A stretch of DNA of 64,000 nt from the IMG/VR virus record IMGVR_UViG_3300046314_000658; one strand, 5' to 3'. A program made the position numbers and the translations under genes. This document shows positions 8,033-18,130 of this stretch, in pieces (positions within the stretch are counted from its first letter, which is position 1; the number at the start of each line of letters is the position of its first letter). Origin of the DNA: a virus. The notes under the pieces were generated by a model, which searched no databases, was not told the DNA's origin, and saw only the letters and a list, made by a program, of their open reading frames with translations.

Positions 8033-8635
8033 TTACATAAAAAGATTTTTGTCGACAATCGAATGCTTCACTTTGTCAACTTGTTTGATTGAAATAGGAT
8101 ATTGGATGTTCACAGACCCCTCTGATTCTGCCCCGCGTGTCATCACAGCGAGCCCGAATTTACGTGCAATATGACGTATTGCTTTGTTTTGCGTGAGACA
8201 GCAAAGATAGATTCGATTGATTGAGTATTCTGTAACCAGTTGATACCCACGCGCGAATAGGAGTTGACCAAGTTTGCGACCACGATGGGCTTCTGCCGTA
8301 GAAAAAGCAAACTCTGCAGTATCATCGAGGATAGCAACGTGGAGTGTTGCAACGAGCTCGCTTCCTCGGTTTATGCCAAACCAGAAGTCAGCACGAGTTC
8401 GTGTATTCACAGTAGCTAAAGTAGTCTCAATGTACGACTTCAACAGGGGTGGTGTGATCAGGTACCCAAACCTGAGATATAAATCTTCATCGCTCAGTGA
8501 TGAGATGTGTTGTACAACAGCGTCAGACGAATCGTCGAATAGCCGCACTAGTGAGTAATCATCAATATTTACCATAGATCTCATTCTTACATTGCTGCTG
8601 CTTGGTGTTGTTACCGCTTCAATAGTCCATGTCAT
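8033..8635 (-). CDS. GNAT-family N-acetyltransferase (start may be further downstream)
   Basis: LYLRF, AEFAFS..HRGRKLGQLL (acetyl-CoA motif A), N.AIRHIARKFG. Confidence 0.85.
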   Translation of the reverse strand: MTWTIEAVTTPSSSNVRMRSMVNIDDYSLVRLFDDSSDAVVQHISSLSDEDLYLRFGYLITPPLLKSYIETTLATVNTRTRADFWFGINRGSELVATLHVAILDDTAEFAFSTAEAHRGRKLGQLLFARGYQLVTEYSINRIYLCCLTQNKAIRHIARKFGLAVMTRGAESEGSVNIQYPISIKQVDKVKHSIVDKNLFM

Positions 8636-8893: not shown

Positions 8894-9301
8894 TTAACGC
8901 CCACCACGAGTAAACCACTTAACTGCAGCATCGTACGTACTGAACGGTCCTGTACCACCAGTGCTGGTAACAGTCGCGTCATTCTCATCACCGTACACTA
9001 GCAGAAATCGCTTTTCACCAGTCGGCGACTCAACTACTCGAACTGTTGAATAATATTCTCGCTCGCGCTCGATCCAGTTGTCAACCATGGTAGTAACACT
9101 TTGTGCATCTTGCGGTTTACGGTGCCAATCTTTATATGCAGTGCCATTGGCAACTGACTGTTCGTATTTGGCAAGGAGAGCAATCGATTCGCCAATTAGT
9201 CGGACACGAATGTCTTCATAGTGCGCAATTTTACTCGCGACAGCAGTTTGAACCAATATTAGGTCGATATCATGTCGAATGTTAGTAACGAGGGTTGTCA
9301 T
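8894..9301 (-). CDS. Hypothetical protein
   Basis: ATG at 9301 after the structured intergenic region. Confidence 0.6.
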   Translation of the reverse strand: MTTLVTNIRHDIDLILVQTAVASKIAHYEDIRVRLIGESIALLAKYEQSVANGTAYKDWHRKPQDAQSVTTMVDNWIEREREYYSTVRVVESPTGEKRFLLVYGDENDATVTSTGGTGPFSTYDAAVKWFTRGGR

Positions 9302-9334
9302 TTTGTAACTGTAGTATAAATTGTTGTTTTTCCA

Positions 9335-9470
9335 ACTCCCGTTCAGGAGTGATTCTGCGCTCGTGAGTATCAAGTCGGCGAAGATGCTGTAAACGATCCT
9401 CCAACGAGGAGAACCTGGTTGGAGAAATCGTACTGGAGTTAGATGGTAGCAGTGGAATCACGACTTGATA
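9335..9470 (-). ncRNA. Candidate structured RNA downstream of nadV
   Basis: Perfect 10-bp closing stem (9368-9377/9461-9470), internal hairpins and a possible pseudoknot; G-U pairs favour the - strand. Confidence 0.45.
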
Positions 9471-10934
9471 TTAAGCAACCCGAGCTCGAATCTCAGCAAG
9501 CGTTGTTTCGTTGAATAATTTCCCAGTGTGGTACACCAATTGCATAACATCCTCGAATTCTTCATTCAATGGACCTCGATCCAATCGAGCAGTCATTAGT
9601 TCATTATTCATTGTGCTACGAACAAGAGTAAGTACACCCTCGAGTGATTTTTTACCCTGATCAGTGATTGGATCTTTTGCAATTCCCTTCCAGGTACCGT
9701 CTTCCATCAGGATCGCACAAGCCTTTTGCGCAAACTTAAATGTATCTCGATTTACTTTTTGCAACAATGCACCACCACTTCCAAAAATAACATTGTCGGC
9801 GCTGAATCCCAAAGTTGCTGTGATCTTGCCCAACAGTGATCGAATCGCAGAGTGATCAACGCCATCCCCTTGGATAATTCCAACGTTATTGATTTTTCGA
9901 TATCCTTTATCATTTTTTACTGACCCAAACGCCAGTTCTTGCAAGTGTAAAATGCGAGGGACAACTTCCTGCATGTCGCCACTGTCAGGACGAAACACAA
10001 CTTTTGCTTTTGTAGCAATAATTTCATCTTTCAAAACAGTACACAACAATTCGGTCTCGCGATATACATCATATCCATCGATAACAATCGAGATGATACC
10101 ACCCTCCACTGCGTTGGAGAGTTGTTTACGAAGGTACTGGATAGCATCATCTCTACCACCACCAAACGAGCACTCGATGCTATGTTCTGTGGCATATACA
10201 GAATATGCTGACATCGGCTCATTGTAATAAAAATTAGCAGTTAGAATACCTTCTACTGTGTCAGATCCCATAAAGTTGACCAAGTGAGCGAATCCACCAA
10301 TCTCTGCTGTTTCTGCAGACGACACGCCACGACCACCAAAGTCATGCAACGAAAAGGGCAATAATCCCATGTCACCACCAGTGATCTCATAGTAGTGCTT
10401 GATTTCTCGCTTGATATTGTAATCATTAGTCGCAATTGTGGTTGGGTACCACACACCACGTTGGATCATCGTCTCAAAACCAGCTGACATCCAAAACAAA
10501 TCTGCATCCAACACAGTAACAGTGTAAATTGGTTGACCACCTTTAATTGGCAACCCTTCTGGTACCGAACGGATGATAAGTGGTAAAGCTCCACCATATT
10601 CTGTTACCACTTTTTCCCAAGCTGCTCGTGCAAACAATTTACGGCCGAAGTGAGCTTCGGCAAACTGCTCTGCTGCATCGACATCTTTCATCGAAATTCG
10701 TTGAGTAAGATATCGCTTAAGCAATAACTGCATTCCAACTGGAATGACAGTCGTTTTTGGATCAACACGAGCAGTTCCGTATGAAGTCATGCCCTGGATA
10801 CCATCAGGATAAGCAAATGGGTGTGAGAATTTATATGAATCAATTCGACAGATCAAGCTAATTTTTAATTGATCTGGTTGAACGTACTGCACATCTGTGG
10901 AAGATGGTGCAAACAATTGTTGAAATTTTGACAT
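9471..10934 (-). CDS. nadV: Nicotinamide phosphoribosyltransferase (Nampt)
   Basis: DSYKFSH, LHDFGGRG, ATEHS, VFRPDSGD, IIQGDG, FGSGGALLQKVNRDT, KDPITDQGKKS. Confidence 0.95.
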   Translation of the reverse strand: MSKFQQLFAPSSTDVQYVQPDQLKISLICRIDSYKFSHPFAYPDGIQGMTSYGTARVDPKTTVIPVGMQLLLKRYLTQRISMKDVDAAEQFAEAHFGRKLFARAAWEKVVTEYGGALPLIIRSVPEGLPIKGGQPIYTVTVLDADLFWMSAGFETMIQRGVWYPTTIATNDYNIKREIKHYYEITGGDMGLLPFSLHDFGGRGVSSAETAEIGGFAHLVNFMGSDTVEGILTANFYYNEPMSAYSVYATEHSIECSFGGGRDDAIQYLRKQLSNAVEGGIISIVIDGYDVYRETELLCTVLKDEIIATKAKVVFRPDSGDMQEVVPRILHLQELAFGSVKNDKGYRKINNVGIIQGDGVDHSAIRSLLGKITATLGFSADNVIFGSGGALLQKVNRDTFKFAQKACAILMEDGTWKGIAKDPITDQGKKSLEGVLTLVRSTMNNELMTARLDRGPLNEEFEDVMQLVYHTGKLFNETTLAEIRARVA

Positions 10935-10979
10935 TTTAAAGTTCCTTTAAAGTTTTGATGCCTAGAGTCTATCTCCAGG
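10935..10979 (-). promoter_or_regulatory. Two-hairpin 5' leader of nadV (GAUAGAC-loop hairpin + SD-occluding hairpin)
   Basis: CCUGGAG-AUAGA-CUCUAGG followed by UUUAAAG-GAA-CUUUAAA before the AUG. Confidence 0.65.
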
Positions 10980-11013
10980 ACTTGCCTCTATATTAACACA
11001 AAACCATTTTGTG

Positions 11014-11475
11014 TTAAACCAAACGCTCGATAACAGTTGCAATCAACTTATCGAGCGTATCTACCTGTGTGAGACCGTACTTCTTGCATACGATGTCGAC
11101 ATTTCCTTTACGCCAGTACCCATCGGGGCAACAGACGATCGTTTCAACTCCACTTGCTGCACACAACCCAAGTTCCAGTAGTGTAATCGGAGACTTCGTG
11201 GCAGGGTCAAAATAGAACACAACAAAATCCACCAGATCGATTGCATCCAATTCCCAGTTCACTTGCTCGACAAACTTTCGATTAGATGTTGATTGCTCCC
11301 AAGTTGGATCCCAGTTATTACGCCGTGGATTGAGTACCGCAACATCACTATCATCAAGTGCGTCAACGACCTTTTGTTGCCAGTCGTCTGCTTTACCCAT
11401 TTCAATCGAGCCAGCTAAAAATACCGATGCGGGGTTGTCCCAAAATAGGGGTGCAGGCGATTTAATTTCAATCAT
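11014..11475 (-). CDS. Nucleoside 2-deoxyribosyltransferase-like protein
   Basis: VFLAGSI..DWQ..LNPRR..QVNWEL..SPITLLELG. Confidence 0.85.
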   Translation of the reverse strand: MIEIKSPAPLFWDNPASVFLAGSIEMGKADDWQQKVVDALDDSDVAVLNPRRNNWDPTWEQSTSNRKFVEQVNWELDAIDLVDFVVFYFDPATKSPITLLELGLCAASGVETIVCCPDGYWRKGNVDIVCKKYGLTQVDTLDKLIATVIERLV

Positions 11476-11620
11476 AATATGTACTTTAAAATAATGGTAA
11501 GATTTACCGAACTACCAATTAGGTTGAGCCACCCACGCAGCATCGCTTTTTGTTTGAACGCTTGTACAGCATCGTACCCACATAACAACATTACAATAAC
11601 AGTAATTGCATGCCACAGTG

Positions 11621-11887
11621 TCATGTTGCCACTCCAATAACTTCATGTACTGATTTAGGAACTGCTTTCAGTGACCCCAAATACTCCATTGTGTACTTCC
11701 GGCGTTCACCTTTGTGACTAACTGGATAACCAGGTTGGATGGTAACATGACCAAAGCTACCGCCGCGATTGAACCTAATGGGTTTCAACTCACCAGTCAC
11801 CTTGATTGAGTACAACTTCTTTTCTACAACATTCCAGAAGTATCCTGGATATCGGGTTGCGACAAACTCCGTTGGAAGAACTACCAT
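11621..11887 (-). CDS. Hypothetical protein
   Basis: GAGGAG RBS; operon packing. Confidence 0.65.
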   Translation of the reverse strand: MVVLPTEFVATRYPGYFWNVVEKKLYSIKVTGELKPIRFNRGGSFGHVTIQPGYPVSHKGERRKYTMEYLGSLKAVPKSVHEVIGVAT

Positions 11888-11888
11888 G

Positions 11889-12053
11889 TCACTCCTCTGC
11901 TTCCCATGTTATTACCACAGTGAATTTTCCTTTGTGGAACCCACATTCATCAATTGGAATTTCTTCGAATTGACGACTATCGTACATCTCAACCACATCT
12001 TGCTCCAAGTCGAGCAGTGTGTCAGCCCAGTATTCTTTTTTCAAGACTATCAT
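11889..12053 (-). CDS. Small hypothetical protein not in the ORF track (MIVLKKEYWADTLLDLEQDVVE...)
   Basis: 54-aa ORF with an ATGA overlap with the upstream gene, filling the gap. Confidence 0.55.
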   Translation of the reverse strand: MIVLKKEYWADTLLDLEQDVVEMYDSRQFEEIPIDECGFHKGKFTVVITWEAEE

Positions 12054-12241
12054 TTTACATGCACTCTTTTACCACAAGGTGGGCACTTGATGAACTTGTA
12101 GTAGTCCTTGCCGCCAGTGTAGTCAGTCGAATAGTCTTCTTTAATGTCACTTGGCGTATACTGCAGGGTTGCACCACAATTGCGACAGATTGTTTCCTTG
12201 ACTACACTTGCGTGTGGAGTAGTTGAAATTACTGTTACCAT
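12050..12241 (-). CDS. Small zinc-ribbon protein
   Basis: CRNC...CPPC. Confidence 0.65.
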   Translation of the reverse strand: MVTVISTTPHASVVKETICRNCGATLQYTPSDIKEDYSTDYTGGKDYYKFIKCPPCGKRVHVK

Positions 12242-12242
12242 C

Positions 12243-12587
12243 TTATGCTCCAAATGATACCGTGACATCAGTTTTTACGGTAAGCGCTTCGATTGCAAAC
12301 ACTTTGAATGGTTTGGGACGGCTGAATTTATTTTCATTCTCTTGCTTGATCCATGTAGCAACTTCTTCTTTGGTCTTAAACCCGTGAATACCAATATAGG
12401 TAGAAGTTTCCATCGATGGAGGGGGATCTGGTGGACCGTAGTCAGCCCCCATATGACTTTCGGAGTACTCGTATACCACGATAAAGTTAGGCGAATGCTT
12501 GGTAAAAGCAGCCAAGCTGCTCATGCTATTTCCTGGGGTTCCAATATACATAAAACACTTTCGAATGTTGTGGGAGTATTGTAGCAA
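12243..12587 (-). CDS. Hypothetical protein (start uncertain)
   Basis: Operon packing. Confidence 0.5.
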   Translation of the reverse strand: MLQYSHNIRKCFMYIGTPGNSMSSLAAFTKHSPNFIVVYEYSESHMGADYGPPDPPPSMETSTYIGIHGFKTKEEVATWIKQENENKFSRPKPFKVFAIEALTVKTDVTVSFGA

Positions 12588-12601
12588 AAGGGGGTAACTG
12601 G

Positions 12602-13015
12602 TTACAACCCATTGCGGTTATTCATCACTGTTACCCACTTTTTTGATTTCTTATCAATTTGTGCGGACAACATTTCCGACAATTCGCCAGCACTCAACTC
12701 AGGGTAGGCAGCAGCTAACGTATCAATGATGGTTAAAATAACATCAGCTGCTTCACCCTCAATCGGCTCTTTCGGGGTTTTGTGCGGCAGGTATCCAAAT
12801 TTGTGGAGTAGTGCTTCACTGAACTCACCCACCTCTTCCATCACTTTAGAGTTGCGTGCAAATACAGGGAACGCGTTATTTTGAGGGCGTTGGCTGATGG
12901 TGAAAAGTCTATTGAACATATTTGTGTTAGTAATATTAGTGGTAAGTTGAGGTATTGCAGCAGAATTGACGGATGAGACGTACGCTGCGTATTTTTCGTA
13001 ATCTGGATGGATCAT
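12602..13015 (-). CDS. MazG-like NTP pyrophosphohydrolase
   Basis: KVMEEVGEFSEA...GEAADV. Confidence 0.8.
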   Translation of the reverse strand: MIHPDYEKYAAYVSSVNSAAIPQLTTNITNTNMFNRLFTISQRPQNNAFPVFARNSKVMEEVGEFSEALLHKFGYLPHKTPKEPIEGEAADVILTIIDTLAAAYPELSAGELSEMLSAQIDKKSKKWVTVMNNRNGL

Positions 13016-13016
13016 A

Positions 13017-14063
13017 TTACGCTCCTATTGCCCACTGCACCATTTCGTAATGATCATCGAAGCATTGTTCACTCCGAACATCATTAATTGGAACCCACAT
13101 TGCTTTTTCAGCATCGTCGCTACCTTTTATTTTCGGTAACTCACCATCAGGTAATACAAATTTAAATGCGTGCGTAATCGTACGGCCACGCGCACTGCGA
13201 TCAATTGCATCGAATACCCGTCGATCCTGGATACTACCAATTAGTACTGGTACCGGCACCTTAATCTTCGTTTCTTCACGCAGTTCGCGAATTGCAGCAT
13301 CTTGCACACTTTTATCAGTGGTAGCATTCACGAATCCCCCTGGAACCGCGAACAACCCCCGCCCTGGTTCGGCGCGGCGTTTGATCATCAATACATGACC
13401 GGAACAAATTACAACTGCATCAGCTGTCACAAAAATAGGAGGGTACGGCAGACTTGCAAATTGACTCTTATACTTGTCAATGAATTCACGCTCACGAATA
13501 ATTTGTTGATAGTCTGGACTACCCTTCCAACCTTCCAACCAACGTACAGTAGGTTGTGGCAGCACAGAGCGAATGAAATTCATATTTGCATCTTCTCGGA
13601 AATACAAATCGCGAATATCAGTTGCGTGTAGTGATTCGATCAACTCAACTTCTTCAACTTCCCACTGAGGGAACATTTTGAGGTAGAATGAGCTGCCATC
13701 TTTATCGTGACCAATAATGCCTGTCTTGCCACCAAGCACACGATACTTAGACACAATTCCTTGCACACGCTGCATCCATGCAGTATCGTTGTATATTGTG
13801 TCAATATTAGATTCAATGTGAACACGGGTAGTGTTATCAAAGTCCCCACTGTCATACAGCTGATCCAGTACGTTGTTAAGCATCATTTTGCGCTCAGCAT
13901 ATGTAAAAGGATTCTTGTAGGTGCGAGGTTGGTCTGCTGAACCGATGATGATGATCAGTTCTTTTGTAAGAGTTAGTGCGCGCCGCAAAATCTCAACGTG
14001 AGCATTGTGGGTAGGTTGGAACCGGCCAATAAATACTAACGTGTCGTATTTTTTTGTAGTCAT
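13017..14063 (-). CDS. nadM: Bifunctional NMN adenylyltransferase / Nudix (ADP-ribose) hydrolase, NadM-Nudix/NatV type
   Basis: FIGRFQPTHNAH (HxxH), KNPF; Nudix box PGGFV...AAIRELREET; GSDDA. Confidence 0.95.
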   Translation of the reverse strand: MTTKKYDTLVFIGRFQPTHNAHVEILRRALTLTKELIIIIGSADQPRTYKNPFTYAERKMMLNNVLDQLYDSGDFDNTTRVHIESNIDTIYNDTAWMQRVQGIVSKYRVLGGKTGIIGHDKDGSSFYLKMFPQWEVEEVELIESLHATDIRDLYFREDANMNFIRSVLPQPTVRWLEGWKGSPDYQQIIREREFIDKYKSQFASLPYPPIFVTADAVVICSGHVLMIKRRAEPGRGLFAVPGGFVNATTDKSVQDAAIRELREETKIKVPVPVLIGSIQDRRVFDAIDRSARGRTITHAFKFVLPDGELPKIKGSDDAEKAMWVPINDVRSEQCFDDHYEMVQWAIGA

Positions 14064-14108
14064 TTCAAAATCCTTGAAAAGTAAAAGTGTGAAAGTCTAT
14101 CTCTCACA
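14064..14108 (-). promoter_or_regulatory. Two-hairpin 5' leader of nadM-Nudix (same motif as the nadV leader)
   Basis: UGUGAGAG-AUAGA-CUUUCACA followed by UUCAAG-GAU-UUUGAA over the SD. Confidence 0.65.
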
Positions 14109-14154
14109 TCTGTATATATGATAACTCAACTCAGCGGTTGGGGTCAATTGAATA

Positions 14155-15015
14155 TCAGTATGCAGCGATGCATTCCAAAATGGTGTTGCGGTGCAGTGTG
14201 AGGACTGGTTCAATCCCACCAGTTTTATCACGCTGGTATCCACCTGCGAGATTCCACACGATTGGAGTACCAACACCTGCACACGATTGGAAGATACCAC
14301 GATCGCGTTCAATCATCTGTTCAGTAGTCATCAATCCACCGTACGGATCATTGCGGTGAATGTCAGCGCCAGCCTGATAGATTACCAAGTCGTAACGCTG
14401 GGTATCTAACATCTCCATCAAATTACGAGGATCGCAGATTGCCATTGCTTGGTCAACAGTGCGATAGCCGTTCCCATTCGTGATGTGATGCACACGTGCA
14501 GTGAGGCCAAGGCGCTTGATAATATCATCAGTACCGTTGCCGTAGTGCATGTCAAAGTCGAGGATCAGGATACGCGAATCATTTGGTAGACGTTTGAGTA
14601 CTTCCACCGCTGTAATCATTAGTCCATTGAACGTACAGAACCCCATCGCGCGATTGTACTCAGCGTGGTGGAAACCAGACGTTGGAGAGACGGCAACACC
14701 ACCACGCTGCAGTACTTCATGAGCAGCAGCTAATAGTGAGCCGGATGTGTACGGAAGACTAGTGGCCACGTCAGGATTGAAATTTTCAAATCCATTTGCA
14801 ATAGTACAGCTGAGCACACCGTCTACGAACGCTGGATCGTGCACTGCCTTGATCATGTCGGTAGTGACTGGCTCGAATGAGCGGATTGTTAAGCGCTGGG
14901 CAATGGATCGATTCGACATCCAGTCCTCCACAACTTGTTGAGGTTTACCTGCAGATGGGCTAGCACTCACATTACTGGCTGCGACCATCTCGGGGCGGTA
15001 GAAAACTGGAATCAT
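14155..15015 (-). CDS. Zn-dependent histone deacetylase / AcuC-family deacetylase
   Basis: SGFHHA, GFCTFN, LDFDMHYGNGT, QAGAD...DP.G, LAGGY. Confidence 0.92.
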   Translation of the reverse strand: MIPVFYRPEMVAASNVSASPSAGKPQQVVEDWMSNRSIAQRLTIRSFEPVTTDMIKAVHDPAFVDGVLSCTIANGFENFNPDVATSLPYTSGSLLAAAHEVLQRGGVAVSPTSGFHHAEYNRAMGFCTFNGLMITAVEVLKRLPNDSRILILDFDMHYGNGTDDIIKRLGLTARVHHITNGNGYRTVDQAMAICDPRNLMEMLDTQRYDLVIYQAGADIHRNDPYGGLMTTEQMIERDRGIFQSCAGVGTPIVWNLAGGYQRDKTGGIEPVLTLHRNTILECIAAY

Positions 15016-15017
15016 TT

Positions 15018-16287
15018 TTAGTCCTTACTTTTTAATTTTGGCGAATCGCTAGCGATCGTGCGGGGATACGTTTCTGGATTATCCCAGAAGTCTTTGAATG
15101 ATAAAATAAAGTCTGCCATCTTCTGAGTCTTCTCGATAAATGCCCACCACGGTTCACGAGCTCTGTATCGGAAATCAACCTCTTGTTCAAATGTCAGTGC
15201 TTCAAGGTTGCGACACACTGCGCGACCAGCTGCGAGAAACTCTTTATAGGTTTCTGGTGTACCATCATTGGTCATTATTTACTCCTCCTGTATTGTGCAG
15301 TTGCAGTGCAATCCACTTGTAGTCGTTCAAATCCACTGAAGTACTTGGTAGCCACGATGATTACCAGGAGACATCGAGGTACTGTGGATCACGTTGATCA
15401 CCTGGCACGTGGACCACTTTGAAACCAAGTGTGATAAGACGTTGACGAATCACTTGGTCTGTATGACGCGTGCAGATCGTTGACTTGCCAGTAGCAGATG
15501 CTGTTTTGATTGCTGCAATTACTTCATCCGTTTCTTTTCGGAGATACCGGCCATCAATGCTTTGCGCAAACTGAGTTTGCTTACGAGCAGCTGCCGCGTC
15601 GAATGAGGTAGTGTTGACAAAATTAGGCATAGTGTTAGTTTAGAGACGGAATTTGGACAGGTAAGTAGCAGCTAGTGACTGATCTTCTTCAGCCTCACTA
15701 TCAATAAAATCAATCGACATCATCTCAACTTCAGTTTGAGCACGAGTCAACAGCTCTGTTGCATAAGTGATGTCATCGGATTCAGCTTGTTTAAACCAAT
15801 CGGCTAATGTAGCAGGGGAAACGGACAATAGAAAATCTAGATTGCTTGCATCGTTTGGGTTCATGGGATTACACTCCATTAGGTCGGTTAGTCAGTTGGA
15901 TCGGGGTTAGCAACAGTGGTTAGTCGAGCAGATTCAAACGCTGCACGTAGCCATACTTCAACATTGACCAGTTTACCAGCATCGCTAAACTGAGTTATGC
16001 TTTCGTGGAAACGCTCACTGCGCAAACTGAAGCTTTCTACTTCATTCCACCAATCTTCGAATGTTGGGTATTGGTTACTGGAGTGCAATTTGACGAACAA
16101 TCAAGGTATTCAGAACTTGCAGAATTTCTTTCTGTTTGTTCCGAGGCATATCAACCATCGCATTTGTCAGAAGTGTTGTCAACACTCCACACGCAAAATC
16201 ATTCGTTTTATGTTCACGTGCTGCTTCACGTACAAACAATGTTCGGGATTGATCGATAGCTTCTTTAGCGTATTTCGCTTGTGGCAT
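15018..16287 (-). other. Run of short hypothetical early ORFs (15018-15275, 15361-15630, 15640-15879, 15888-16100, 16075-16287)
   Basis: Co-oriented, tightly packed ORFs downstream of the sigma70-like promoter at 16321-16348. Confidence 0.6.
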
Positions 16288-17059: not shown

Positions 17060-18130
17060 TTACTTCACAGGAATGATCAACTTTTGACCGACTGCAATGA
17101 AGTTGGGGTTAGCCAAGTTGTTGCGAGATTGGATATCACCGTACTTCATCTTGTCGCCCAGTTGAGTTTGAGCGATTGTCGACAGTGTATCACCTTTGGT
17201 CACAACGTAACTAACTTCACCAGAACTTGCGCGGCGCACAGCAGCAGTTTTGTCGGACATGAAGTACTTTTTCAACATTTCAGTGTATTCAGGCGTATCA
17301 GTAACTTTGCGGATGGCGCTGTTCAATGCGTTGAGCAAGTCTTTGTCTCCCTTACGTACACCAATACGGTACTGAATGTCCGAGCCTTTGATCTTAGTCA
17401 TTGCGAACTGCAAGTCTGTACCGTTTACTTCCGCCACAGCGAATGGGTAGTCATACATCACAGCATCGACTTTTTTGGATTTCAGGTGACCAACGATCCA
17501 CCTACCGTCAGCATCAGCTTTGTCGGACAATTCAACGATTGTTGCACTAGGGAATGCAAATTCAGCGAATGCGCGTGCATCGGGGTCACCTTGTAGTACG
17601 CCAAGTTTGGTCACATCAGCGGCATTAGCAATCGAGGTACCTTTTGTAACGATCAGGCTGTAACCGAAATCTTTCACGTATGGGGTGGTATACACAACAC
17701 CAGGCAAGTCTTCATCATTGAATGTCAAGCCGTCGATAGCGATGTCGACCTTATTACGTTCCAATAACTGTTTCGGTACGTCAGCGTATGTTTCAACAGC
17801 GTGGTTGGTATCGAGTTTCACCTTACCACCGAACTCACTTTGAGCAAGCACAGCATTCAGAAAGTCAACGTTGAAACCTTTTGCACGACCGCTTTCGGAA
17901 AAGTAGAACGGCTTGGATGGGTCTTGCACGCTAACGCGAATCACGCCTTTGCCGATGACACTTTGCAAAGCGCCGCTGGTTACAGTGGGCGCACCTGCTT
18001 TGATTGCTTCAACGGTTGCAGCAGGAGCGATTGTGTTGACTTTGTTGCGGAAATCCTTGTCGTAAAACACACCAACTACAGCCAACACAATAAGAAACAG
18101 GATAGATACGATAGTTTTTGAATTCAACAT
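17060..18130 (-). CDS. Membrane-anchored amino-acid-type solute-binding protein (SBP family 3) with C-terminal LysM domain
   Basis: N-terminal TM; G.IRV..PF..GFNVD..KVDIAI..YTTPY..LNSAI; LysM YVVTKGDTLSTIA..NNLANPNFIAVGQKLIIP. Confidence 0.88.
   Translation of the reverse strand: MLNSKTIVSILFLIVLAVVGVFYDKDFRNKVNTIAPAATVEAIKAGAPTVTSGALQSVIGKGVIRVSVQDPSKPFYFSESGRAKGFNVDFLNAVLAQSEFGGKVKLDTNHAVETYADVPKQLLERNKVDIAIDGLTFNDEDLPGVVYTTPYVKDFGYSLIVTKGTSIANAADVTKLGVLQGDPDARAFAEFAFPSATIVELSDKADADGRWIVGHLKSKKVDAVMYDYPFAVAEVNGTDLQFAMTKIKGSDIQYRIGVRKGDKDLLNALNSAIRKVTDTPEYTEMLKKYFMSDKTAAVRRASSGEVSYVVTKGDTLSTIAQTQLGDKMKYGDIQSRNNLANPNFIAVGQKLIIPVK

Follow-up and report, generated by a model that had tools for sequence, protein, structure and literature searches.

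Two genes for the salvage of nicotinamide adenine dinucleotide (NAD), nadV and nadM-Nudix, carry the same two-hairpin leader on the stretch of viral DNA analysed here (IMG/VR virus record IMGVR_UViG_3300046314_000658, 64,000 nucleotides (nt), the whole of which is referred to below as the window), and leaders of the same design precede NAD genes of other phages and of bacteria. We consider these leaders to be, probably, a functional RNA element that acts on translation. For the reader of the element we lean towards a protein, and NadM-Nudix is our best guess at its identity, a guess more apt to be wrong than right. The reading as a whole, that of a conserved bipartite RNA element which sets translation initiation of an NAD-salvage regulon and is read by a protein, NadM-Nudix being the best guess, is therefore put forward tentatively and, in our judgement, falls a little short of an even chance. 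The element is absent from Rfam and lies outside every family tested. One of the main routes that bacterial immunity takes is to deplete NAD+, and nadV and nadM-Nudix together constitute NARP2, a phage pathway that rebuilds NAD+. An NAD-gene-specific leader RNA common to jumbo phages, Burkholderia, Psychrobacter, Methylomonas, Sulfurovum and other bacteria would join the two known riboswitch classes as a third means of controlling NAD metabolism through RNA.

Two hairpins before each of two NAD genes

The genes, the two hairpins of each leader (H1 and H2, lengths in base pairs (bp)) and the adjoining promoter-like sites are as follows.

9471-10934, minus strand: nadV, nicotinamide phosphoribosyltransferase, 487 amino acids (aa); Pfam NAPRTase (6e-39) and NAMPT_N (1e-17)
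10935-10951, minus strand: H2 of nadV, UUUAAAG-GAA-CUUUAAA, over the AAGGA ribosome-binding site, its 3' arm reaching the AUG
10952-10960, minus strand: linker of nadV, CAUCAAAAC, 9 nt, without G
10961-10979, minus strand: H1 of nadV, CCUGGAG-AUAGA-CUCUAGG, 7 bp stem with one G-U, AUAGA loop closed by G-C
10990-11017, minus strand: promoter-like TTAACA-16-(TG)TAATAT, from a consensus scan only; predicted transcript start about 4 nt before H1 of nadV
13017-14063, minus strand: nadM-Nudix, bifunctional nicotinamide mononucleotide (NMN) adenylyltransferase and ADP-ribose pyrophosphatase, 348 aa; Pfam CTP_transf_like and NUDIX
14064-14078, minus strand: H2 of nadM, UUCAAG-GAU-UUUGAA, over the AAGGA site, reaching the AUG
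14079-14087, minus strand: linker of nadM, CUUUUACUU, 9 nt, without G
14088-14108, minus strand: H1 of nadM, UGUGAGAG-AUAGA-CUUUCACA, 8 bp stem with one G-U, AUAGA loop closed by G-C
14118-14147, minus strand: promoter-like TTGACC-18-TATCAT, 10 of 12 consensus positions, from a consensus scan; predicted start about 3 nt before H1 of nadM

Both genes share a single layout, in which H1 is followed by a short linker and then by H2, which reaches the AUG. The leader had been predicted from the sequence of the window alone, and its coordinates and sequences were confirmed throughout: the H1 stems (7-8 bp) differ between nadV and nadM yet pair, with one G-U in each, and the core GAGAUAGACU is identical. 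Counted from the last loop base of H1 to the A of the AUG there are 34 positions in nadV and 33 in nadM; the loop-to-AUG distances are 38 and 37 nt, respectively. The folding energy of H1 is -8.4 kcal/mol for nadV and -7.7 kcal/mol for nadM. When either leader is folded as a whole, H2 is part of the minimum-energy structure, and it spans the AAGGA site as predicted, but the claim that it buries the Shine-Dalgarno sequence was too strong, since H2 alone is only marginally stable (-1.2 kcal/mol for nadV, -0.7 kcal/mol for nadM). H1 of nadM together with a U-rich run was flagged as terminator-like; attenuation was rejected because linkers across the family are not U-rich.

These leaders stand out within their own genome. 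The window is a piece of a 139 kb virus record, in which the exact 10-mer core occurs twice, both times at these leaders, and a strict hairpin descriptor found no further copy that is followed by a ribosome-binding site and an AUG. Two covariance models were used, R1 for the 25 nt of H1 and R2 for the full leader. With filters off, R1 scored 26.4 bits at nadV and 23.9 bits at nadM whereas the runner-up in the window scored 15.4 bits; the next best site for R2 reached 13 bits, the two window leaders having belonged to the training set of that model. Hairpins of any sort with at least 6 bp that terminate near the start codon were found at 10 of 246 rough gene starts, with the NAD pair as typical cases, and hairpins of the H2 type (three-base loop, flush with the start codon) at the NAD pair and one less typical start among the same 246.

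Conservation of the leader among phages

Our phage sample comprised 20 loci with NadV and 80 loci with NadM-Nudix, and about half or more of the homologous leaders share the two-hairpin design. Retention of the motif before homologous genes, on which the original prediction had staked its claim, was found with a strict test for H1: of 67 distinct nadM leaders 38 satisfied it, and of 18 nadV leaders 9, as compared with 1.65% of random 130-nt windows. The H1 stems of these relatives are 5-10 bp long and unrelated in sequence; the commonest loop is G-AUAGA-C, and C-AGAGA-G, C-AGUGA-G, G-AACGA-C and A/C-AGA variants also occur. Linkers are A-rich with 10% G and variable in both length and sequence, and H2 takes the form ...AAG-GAG-CUU..., 0-4 nt from the AUG. 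In an alignment of 108 H1 sequences all nine stem pairs vary on both sides, the inner five pairs having been imposed by our selection criteria; the next two pairs outward, which these criteria left free, are paired in 94% and 85% of the sequences. Three loop bases are invariant (A1, G4 and A5), and there is no internal loop or junction.

The geometry of the leader is conserved as well. Across the family the median distance from loop to AUG is 39 nt (10-90% range 36-43), and longer H1 stems accompany shorter linkers. A distance fixed in this manner puts the loop of H1 just where the landing site of the ribosome begins on its upstream side, and the fixed position beside the ribosome-binding site and AUG fits the translational operator that had been proposed for the window. 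Both window leaders have each of the traits by which we define the family: an H1 with a 5-10 bp stem of free sequence and an A-N-N-G-A pentaloop; an H2 over the ribosome-binding site with a loop of 3-5 nt and a 3' arm 0-4 nt from the start codon; a G-poor linker, with about 36-43 nt between loop and AUG; and a position before NAD synthesis or salvage genes and nowhere else in the genome.

The reach of the element extends to further NAD genes. Among 153 H1 sites with a ribosome-binding site and start codon behind them, 151 lie on the gene strand, 60 being situated before nadV and 55 before nadM; further H1 sites precede genes for a PnuC transporter, for the quinolinate synthase NadA and, inside the NAD cluster, for small proteins that match no Pfam family. 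In five jumbo-phage genomes (235-425 kb, 1.57 Mb in total, four of them at least 90% complete) scanned at an expect (E) value of 1 or less, the NAD cluster holds all R1 matches and 13 of the 14 R2 matches, which answers the concern, raised with the original prediction, that the motif might be just as common before unrelated genes. Strong TTGACA-17-TATAAT promoter sites are present in homologous leaders at the same place as the promoter-like sites of the window, and some copies of the element are intercistronic, directly after the stop codon of the upstream cistron and with no promoter.

Two further observations concern these relatives. A family of small proteins (117-137 aa, with a motif around GLW..KGEDPNCD and no Pfam match) is encoded under the two-hairpin leader inside phage NAD clusters, at loci L018:4483-4890, L027, L039, L040, L095 and L099; none of the small protein families preceded by H1 is encoded in the record to which the window belongs. 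In Yersinia phage fHe-Yen9-04 (L114; LR596615.1, 49976-49991 and 51673-51687) there is an analogous hairpin, AAAGC-GU(U)GUA-GCUUU, with an identical H2 (CUAAGGGAGUCUUAG), and the leader with this GU(U)GUA loop is found before nadM and nadV only, in 354 kb.

Evidence for the mRNA strand

We favour a structure on the mRNA strand over a DNA operator, a preference drawn from four sequence patterns taken together: the arms of H1 have no conserved sequence, conservation being limited to the asymmetric centre; the core of the NrtR operator, GT-N7-AC, is found in 1 of 108 H1 copies; mismatches are more often G-U than A-C; and some intercistronic copies have no promoter. The G-U argument of the original prediction rested on two pairs, and it holds statistically in the wider set, where internal single mismatches of H1 flanked by Watson-Crick pairs are G-U in 51 cases, A-C in 15 and other in 21. 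A cruder test by stem extension of H1 showed no asymmetry (G-U 22 against A-C 23). Extension of the H2 stem gave 72 G-U against 9 A-C, a bias that may in part reflect base composition.

The NrtR box (Rodionov et al. 2008, PMC2330246) is a palindrome of 21 bp whose half-sites are conserved and whose core is GT-N7-AC. It shares with our element the targets nadM-nadV, an inverted repeat of equal size beside the promoter and a Nudix domain as the suspected sensor; it differs in that the NrtR half-sites are conserved, whereas the arms of the element are free and its mismatches favour the RNA strand. An NrtR-like operator had been named at the outset as the alternative to an RNA element, and the leaders do not fit it.

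Occurrence in bacteria

Bacterial nadM-nadV operons, examined through a sample of 80 NadM-Nudix loci, bear the element upstream of nadM, of the nadV that follows it, or of each of the two. It was found in Burkholderia, Paraburkholderia, Ralstonia, Psychrobacter, Pseudoalteromonas, Hahella, Methylomonas, Thiothrix, Caulobacter, Sulfurovum-like Campylobacterota and one cyanobacterium. The element belongs to the nadM-nadV module in general and was not invented by phages, and the phage-specific switch for NAD+ reconstitution that was first envisaged proved too narrow a reading. Its presence in bacterial operons points to homeostatic control that travels with the nadM-nadV module, rather than to a special counter-defence switch.

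On whole bacterial genomes R2 gave three matches at E<0.01, all of which are NAD leaders, and a match at E 0.07 before psaD that is probably due to chance. R1, which is underpowered for bacterial genomes of 5-9 Mb, recovered NAD leaders in one of five genomes together with one A/U-only hairpin elsewhere. A sample of 401 Gammaproteobacteria genomes, 16 of them with nadV, links the presence of H1 to that of NadM-Nudix: H1 precedes nadV in 4/4 genomes with nadM-Nudix adjacent and in 0/11 nadV genes from genomes without a full-length NadM-Nudix. Unlinked nadV genes have the leader in three of four tested genomes whose nadM bears it, and the element thus marks a regulon that goes beyond one operon. 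A genome with H1 before nadM and no nadV at all would exclude NadV as the reader; of five candidates, four have nadV elsewhere and the fifth is a small assembly, so that the choice between the two proteins is not decided by them.

Proposed mechanism and the case for NadM-Nudix as reader

In the leaders the invariant A..GA pentaloop of H1 is carried on a stem of free sequence and held about 39 nt from the start codon. Behind it lie the G-poor single-stranded linker and then H2, in which part of the ribosome-binding site is paired with the spacer up to the AUG. In the mechanism that we propose, a protein bound to the H1 loop, and thus located where the ribosome lands, would hinder, or conceivably help, binding of the 30S subunit at the weakly closed H2. 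The reader would be a protein of the module, most likely NadM-Nudix, which would thereby exert feedback on its own pathway, and a ligand (ADP-ribose, NMN, NAD+ or ATP) could modulate its binding.

The choice of a protein is suggested by the manner in which the loops vary. Loop and closing pair are identical within a genome for 36 of 58 pairs against 17.2 expected, and none of 5000 shuffles reached 36. Loops that change in concert and are specific to a lineage are more easily reconciled with a protein that evolves along with them than with a binding pocket for one universal metabolite. Among proteins we favour NadM-Nudix as the reader, because it and NadV were the sole consistent companions of the element that we saw and the bacterial sample ties the element to NadM-Nudix. 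A more detailed version, in which NadM-Nudix reads the A..GA loop and releases it when the Nudix or adenylyltransferase site is occupied (e.g. by ADP-ribose), is, as it stands, rather unlikely. If true, translation of the salvage regulon would be raised just as NAD+ is broken down, in phages and bacteria alike, and the leader would represent an RNA-level counterpart of NrtR as well as a built-in sensor of NAD-depleting immunity. Any reading of the element by an enzyme would provide a clear case of a metabolic enzyme as an RNA-binding regulator.

Several observations weigh against this proposal. The nadM-Nudix product aligns from end to end with 2QJO, the Synechocystis enzyme of solved structure (E 4.5e-78), and neither a known RNA-binding domain nor an extra domain relative to solved enzymes was found in it. 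NadM-Nudix is present and H1 absent in RB43 (L116), a KVP40-type phage (L115) and phiM12 (L117), whose nadM genes have a short G-GAG-C hairpin over the ribosome-binding site, 0-3 nt from the AUG. Likewise, H1 precedes nadV in 0/2 of the Gammaproteobacteria genomes that encode a distant NadM-Nudix (35% identity) elsewhere. The link to NadM-Nudix is also confounded, as nadV and nadM belong to one pathway and their leaders were possibly inherited with the module. The concerted loops rest on three or four lineage-level switches and could have arisen through shared descent or gene conversion. Finally, with an H2 as weak as those of the window, repression through sequestration alone is doubtful.

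Alternative explanations and comparison with known systems

A minimal riboswitch would dispense with a protein, the bare leader binding NAD+, NMN, ADP-ribose or nicotinamide and thereby altering access to the ribosome-binding site. The regulon of nadV, nadM, pnuC and nadA is of the kind that riboswitches control, the element is spread across phages and several bacterial phyla, and riboswitches commonly have as their expression platform a hairpin that covers the ribosome-binding site. We nevertheless regard this explanation as improbable: the loop has just three invariant bases, internal loops and junctions are absent, on inspection H1 and H2 showed neither an alternative pairing nor a pseudoknot with each other, the linker is inconstant, and loops that change in concert within genomes, one lineage having a quite different loop, would be unexpected for a universal ligand. 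The NAD+-I (nadA motif) and NAD+-II (pnuC motif) riboswitches resemble the element in standing before NAD genes, including nadA and pnuC, and in being likely to act on translation; they differ from it in that the element is without their internal bulge or pseudoknot architecture and has far fewer conserved bases. The covariance models of these two classes gave no match at E<=10, and Rfam 15 at permissive thresholds gave nothing relevant on positions 9000-16000 of the window or on the leaders of five relatives, in agreement with the expected unlikeness to both riboswitches. In the literature on cis-regulatory RNA of nadV and nadM we found no description of the element or of the control of these phage genes.

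No more probable than the riboswitch is a protein reader other than NadM-Nudix, whether a conserved host RNA-binding protein, an uncharacterized small protein encoded in the NAD cluster or an activator able to open H2 in the way that Com of phage Mu acts on mom. Mu com/mom is built on the same two-part plan, its protein-binding hairpin being followed at once by another that shuts off the start site, but for the element neither a Com-like protein nor any likeness in sequence is seen. In several phages the leader also heads small genes that belong to no known family, and regulators are often self-controlling; against this, these families are missing from the record of the window. A single host factor is unlikely given hosts that range from cyanobacteria to Campylobacterota. 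CsrA/RsmA recognizes GGA in a hairpin loop, and the lambda-type boxB is a G-N-R-N-A pentaloop on a 5 bp stem. GGA is present in 0/108 H1 loops, whose third base is A, U or C, and the first loop base is invariably A rather than the G of boxB.

PyrR, an enzyme-like protein that reads a nucleotide signal, was also considered. In some relatives the stem carries C-AGAGA-G, which is reminiscent of the PyrR binding loop (RF00515) with its core of UCCAGAGAGG; the loop of the window is AUAGA, and the regulon is one of NAD and not of pyrimidines. RF00515 gave no match to the leaders, those of AGAGA type included. A PyrR-type protein was rejected as reader, the phosphoribosyltransferase domain PF00156 being absent from the record of the window and from one complete relative.

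Enzymes and phage proteins do read translational operators of this size, as in the gene 43 polymerase operator of T4, the thrS operator of Escherichia coli and the coat/replicase hairpin of MS2. These are known as small hairpins with few invariant loop bases, at or upstream of the ribosome-binding site, as is H1. The element differs in being repeated before several genes of one pathway and common to phages and bacteria, in including a second hairpin over the ribosome-binding site, and in having a reader that is only proposed here. By analogy, it would in its working be most like these small operators read by enzymes or phage proteins, or like Mu com/mom.

Slightly less probable again is an arrangement with no trans-acting reader, in which H1 would be a 5'-terminal stabilizer and H2 a fixed brake that keeps the enzymes at a low constitutive level. 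Where a promoter is visible, H1 begins only a few bases from where the transcript is predicted to start, and H2 can be likened to the fourU-type hairpins over ribosome-binding sites. A stabilizer would need neither invariant loop bases nor a fixed distance to the AUG, however, nor would it be restricted to NAD genes, and the intercistronic copies are not 5'-terminal. Finally, a double-stranded DNA operator for an NrtR-like repressor over the transcription start is very improbable: H1 is indeed a 19-21 bp inverted repeat just downstream of the promoter-like sites, and NrtR boxes precede nadM-nadV in some bacteria (PMC2330246), but the unconserved half-sites, the rarity of the NrtR core, the excess of G-U mismatches and the intercistronic copies set out above all speak against it, as does the tie of H2 to the AUG.

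Genome setting and further observations

The 139 kb record is estimated to represent about half of a jumbo phage genome. Its phage is recurrent across many freshwater metagenomes, and a megablast search of cultured phages with positions 9400-14300 of the window gave no match. The NAD pair has as neighbours genes at 8033-8635, 11014-11475 and 14155-15015, which encode proteins of the GNAT acetyltransferase, nucleoside 2-deoxyribosyltransferase-like and histone-deacetylase families; the leader is absent before these genes. In Yersinia phage fHe-Yen9-04 a SIR2 deacetylase is encoded in the corresponding NAD neighbourhood. A hairpin, AACACAAAA-UGG-UUUUGUGUU (10996-11018, minus strand), overlaps both the stop codon of the upstream gene at 11014-11475 and the -35 box of the promoter-like site of nadV, and may be a terminator or a boundary of transcription units.

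One metatranscriptome contig of 243 nt, identical to the window, covers positions 13893-14135 and includes the nadM leader; it provides no evidence of a transcript end, because such contigs have no start or strand information and carry-over of DNA is possible. A single metatranscriptome contig (run X24, depth 5.8) joins position 13311 back to 12936 within nadM, which is possibly an artefact of assembly. Further along the window, at 17060-18130 on the minus strand, a protein of 356 aa combines an SBP_bac_3 solute-binding domain with a LysM domain, an unusual content for a phage gene.

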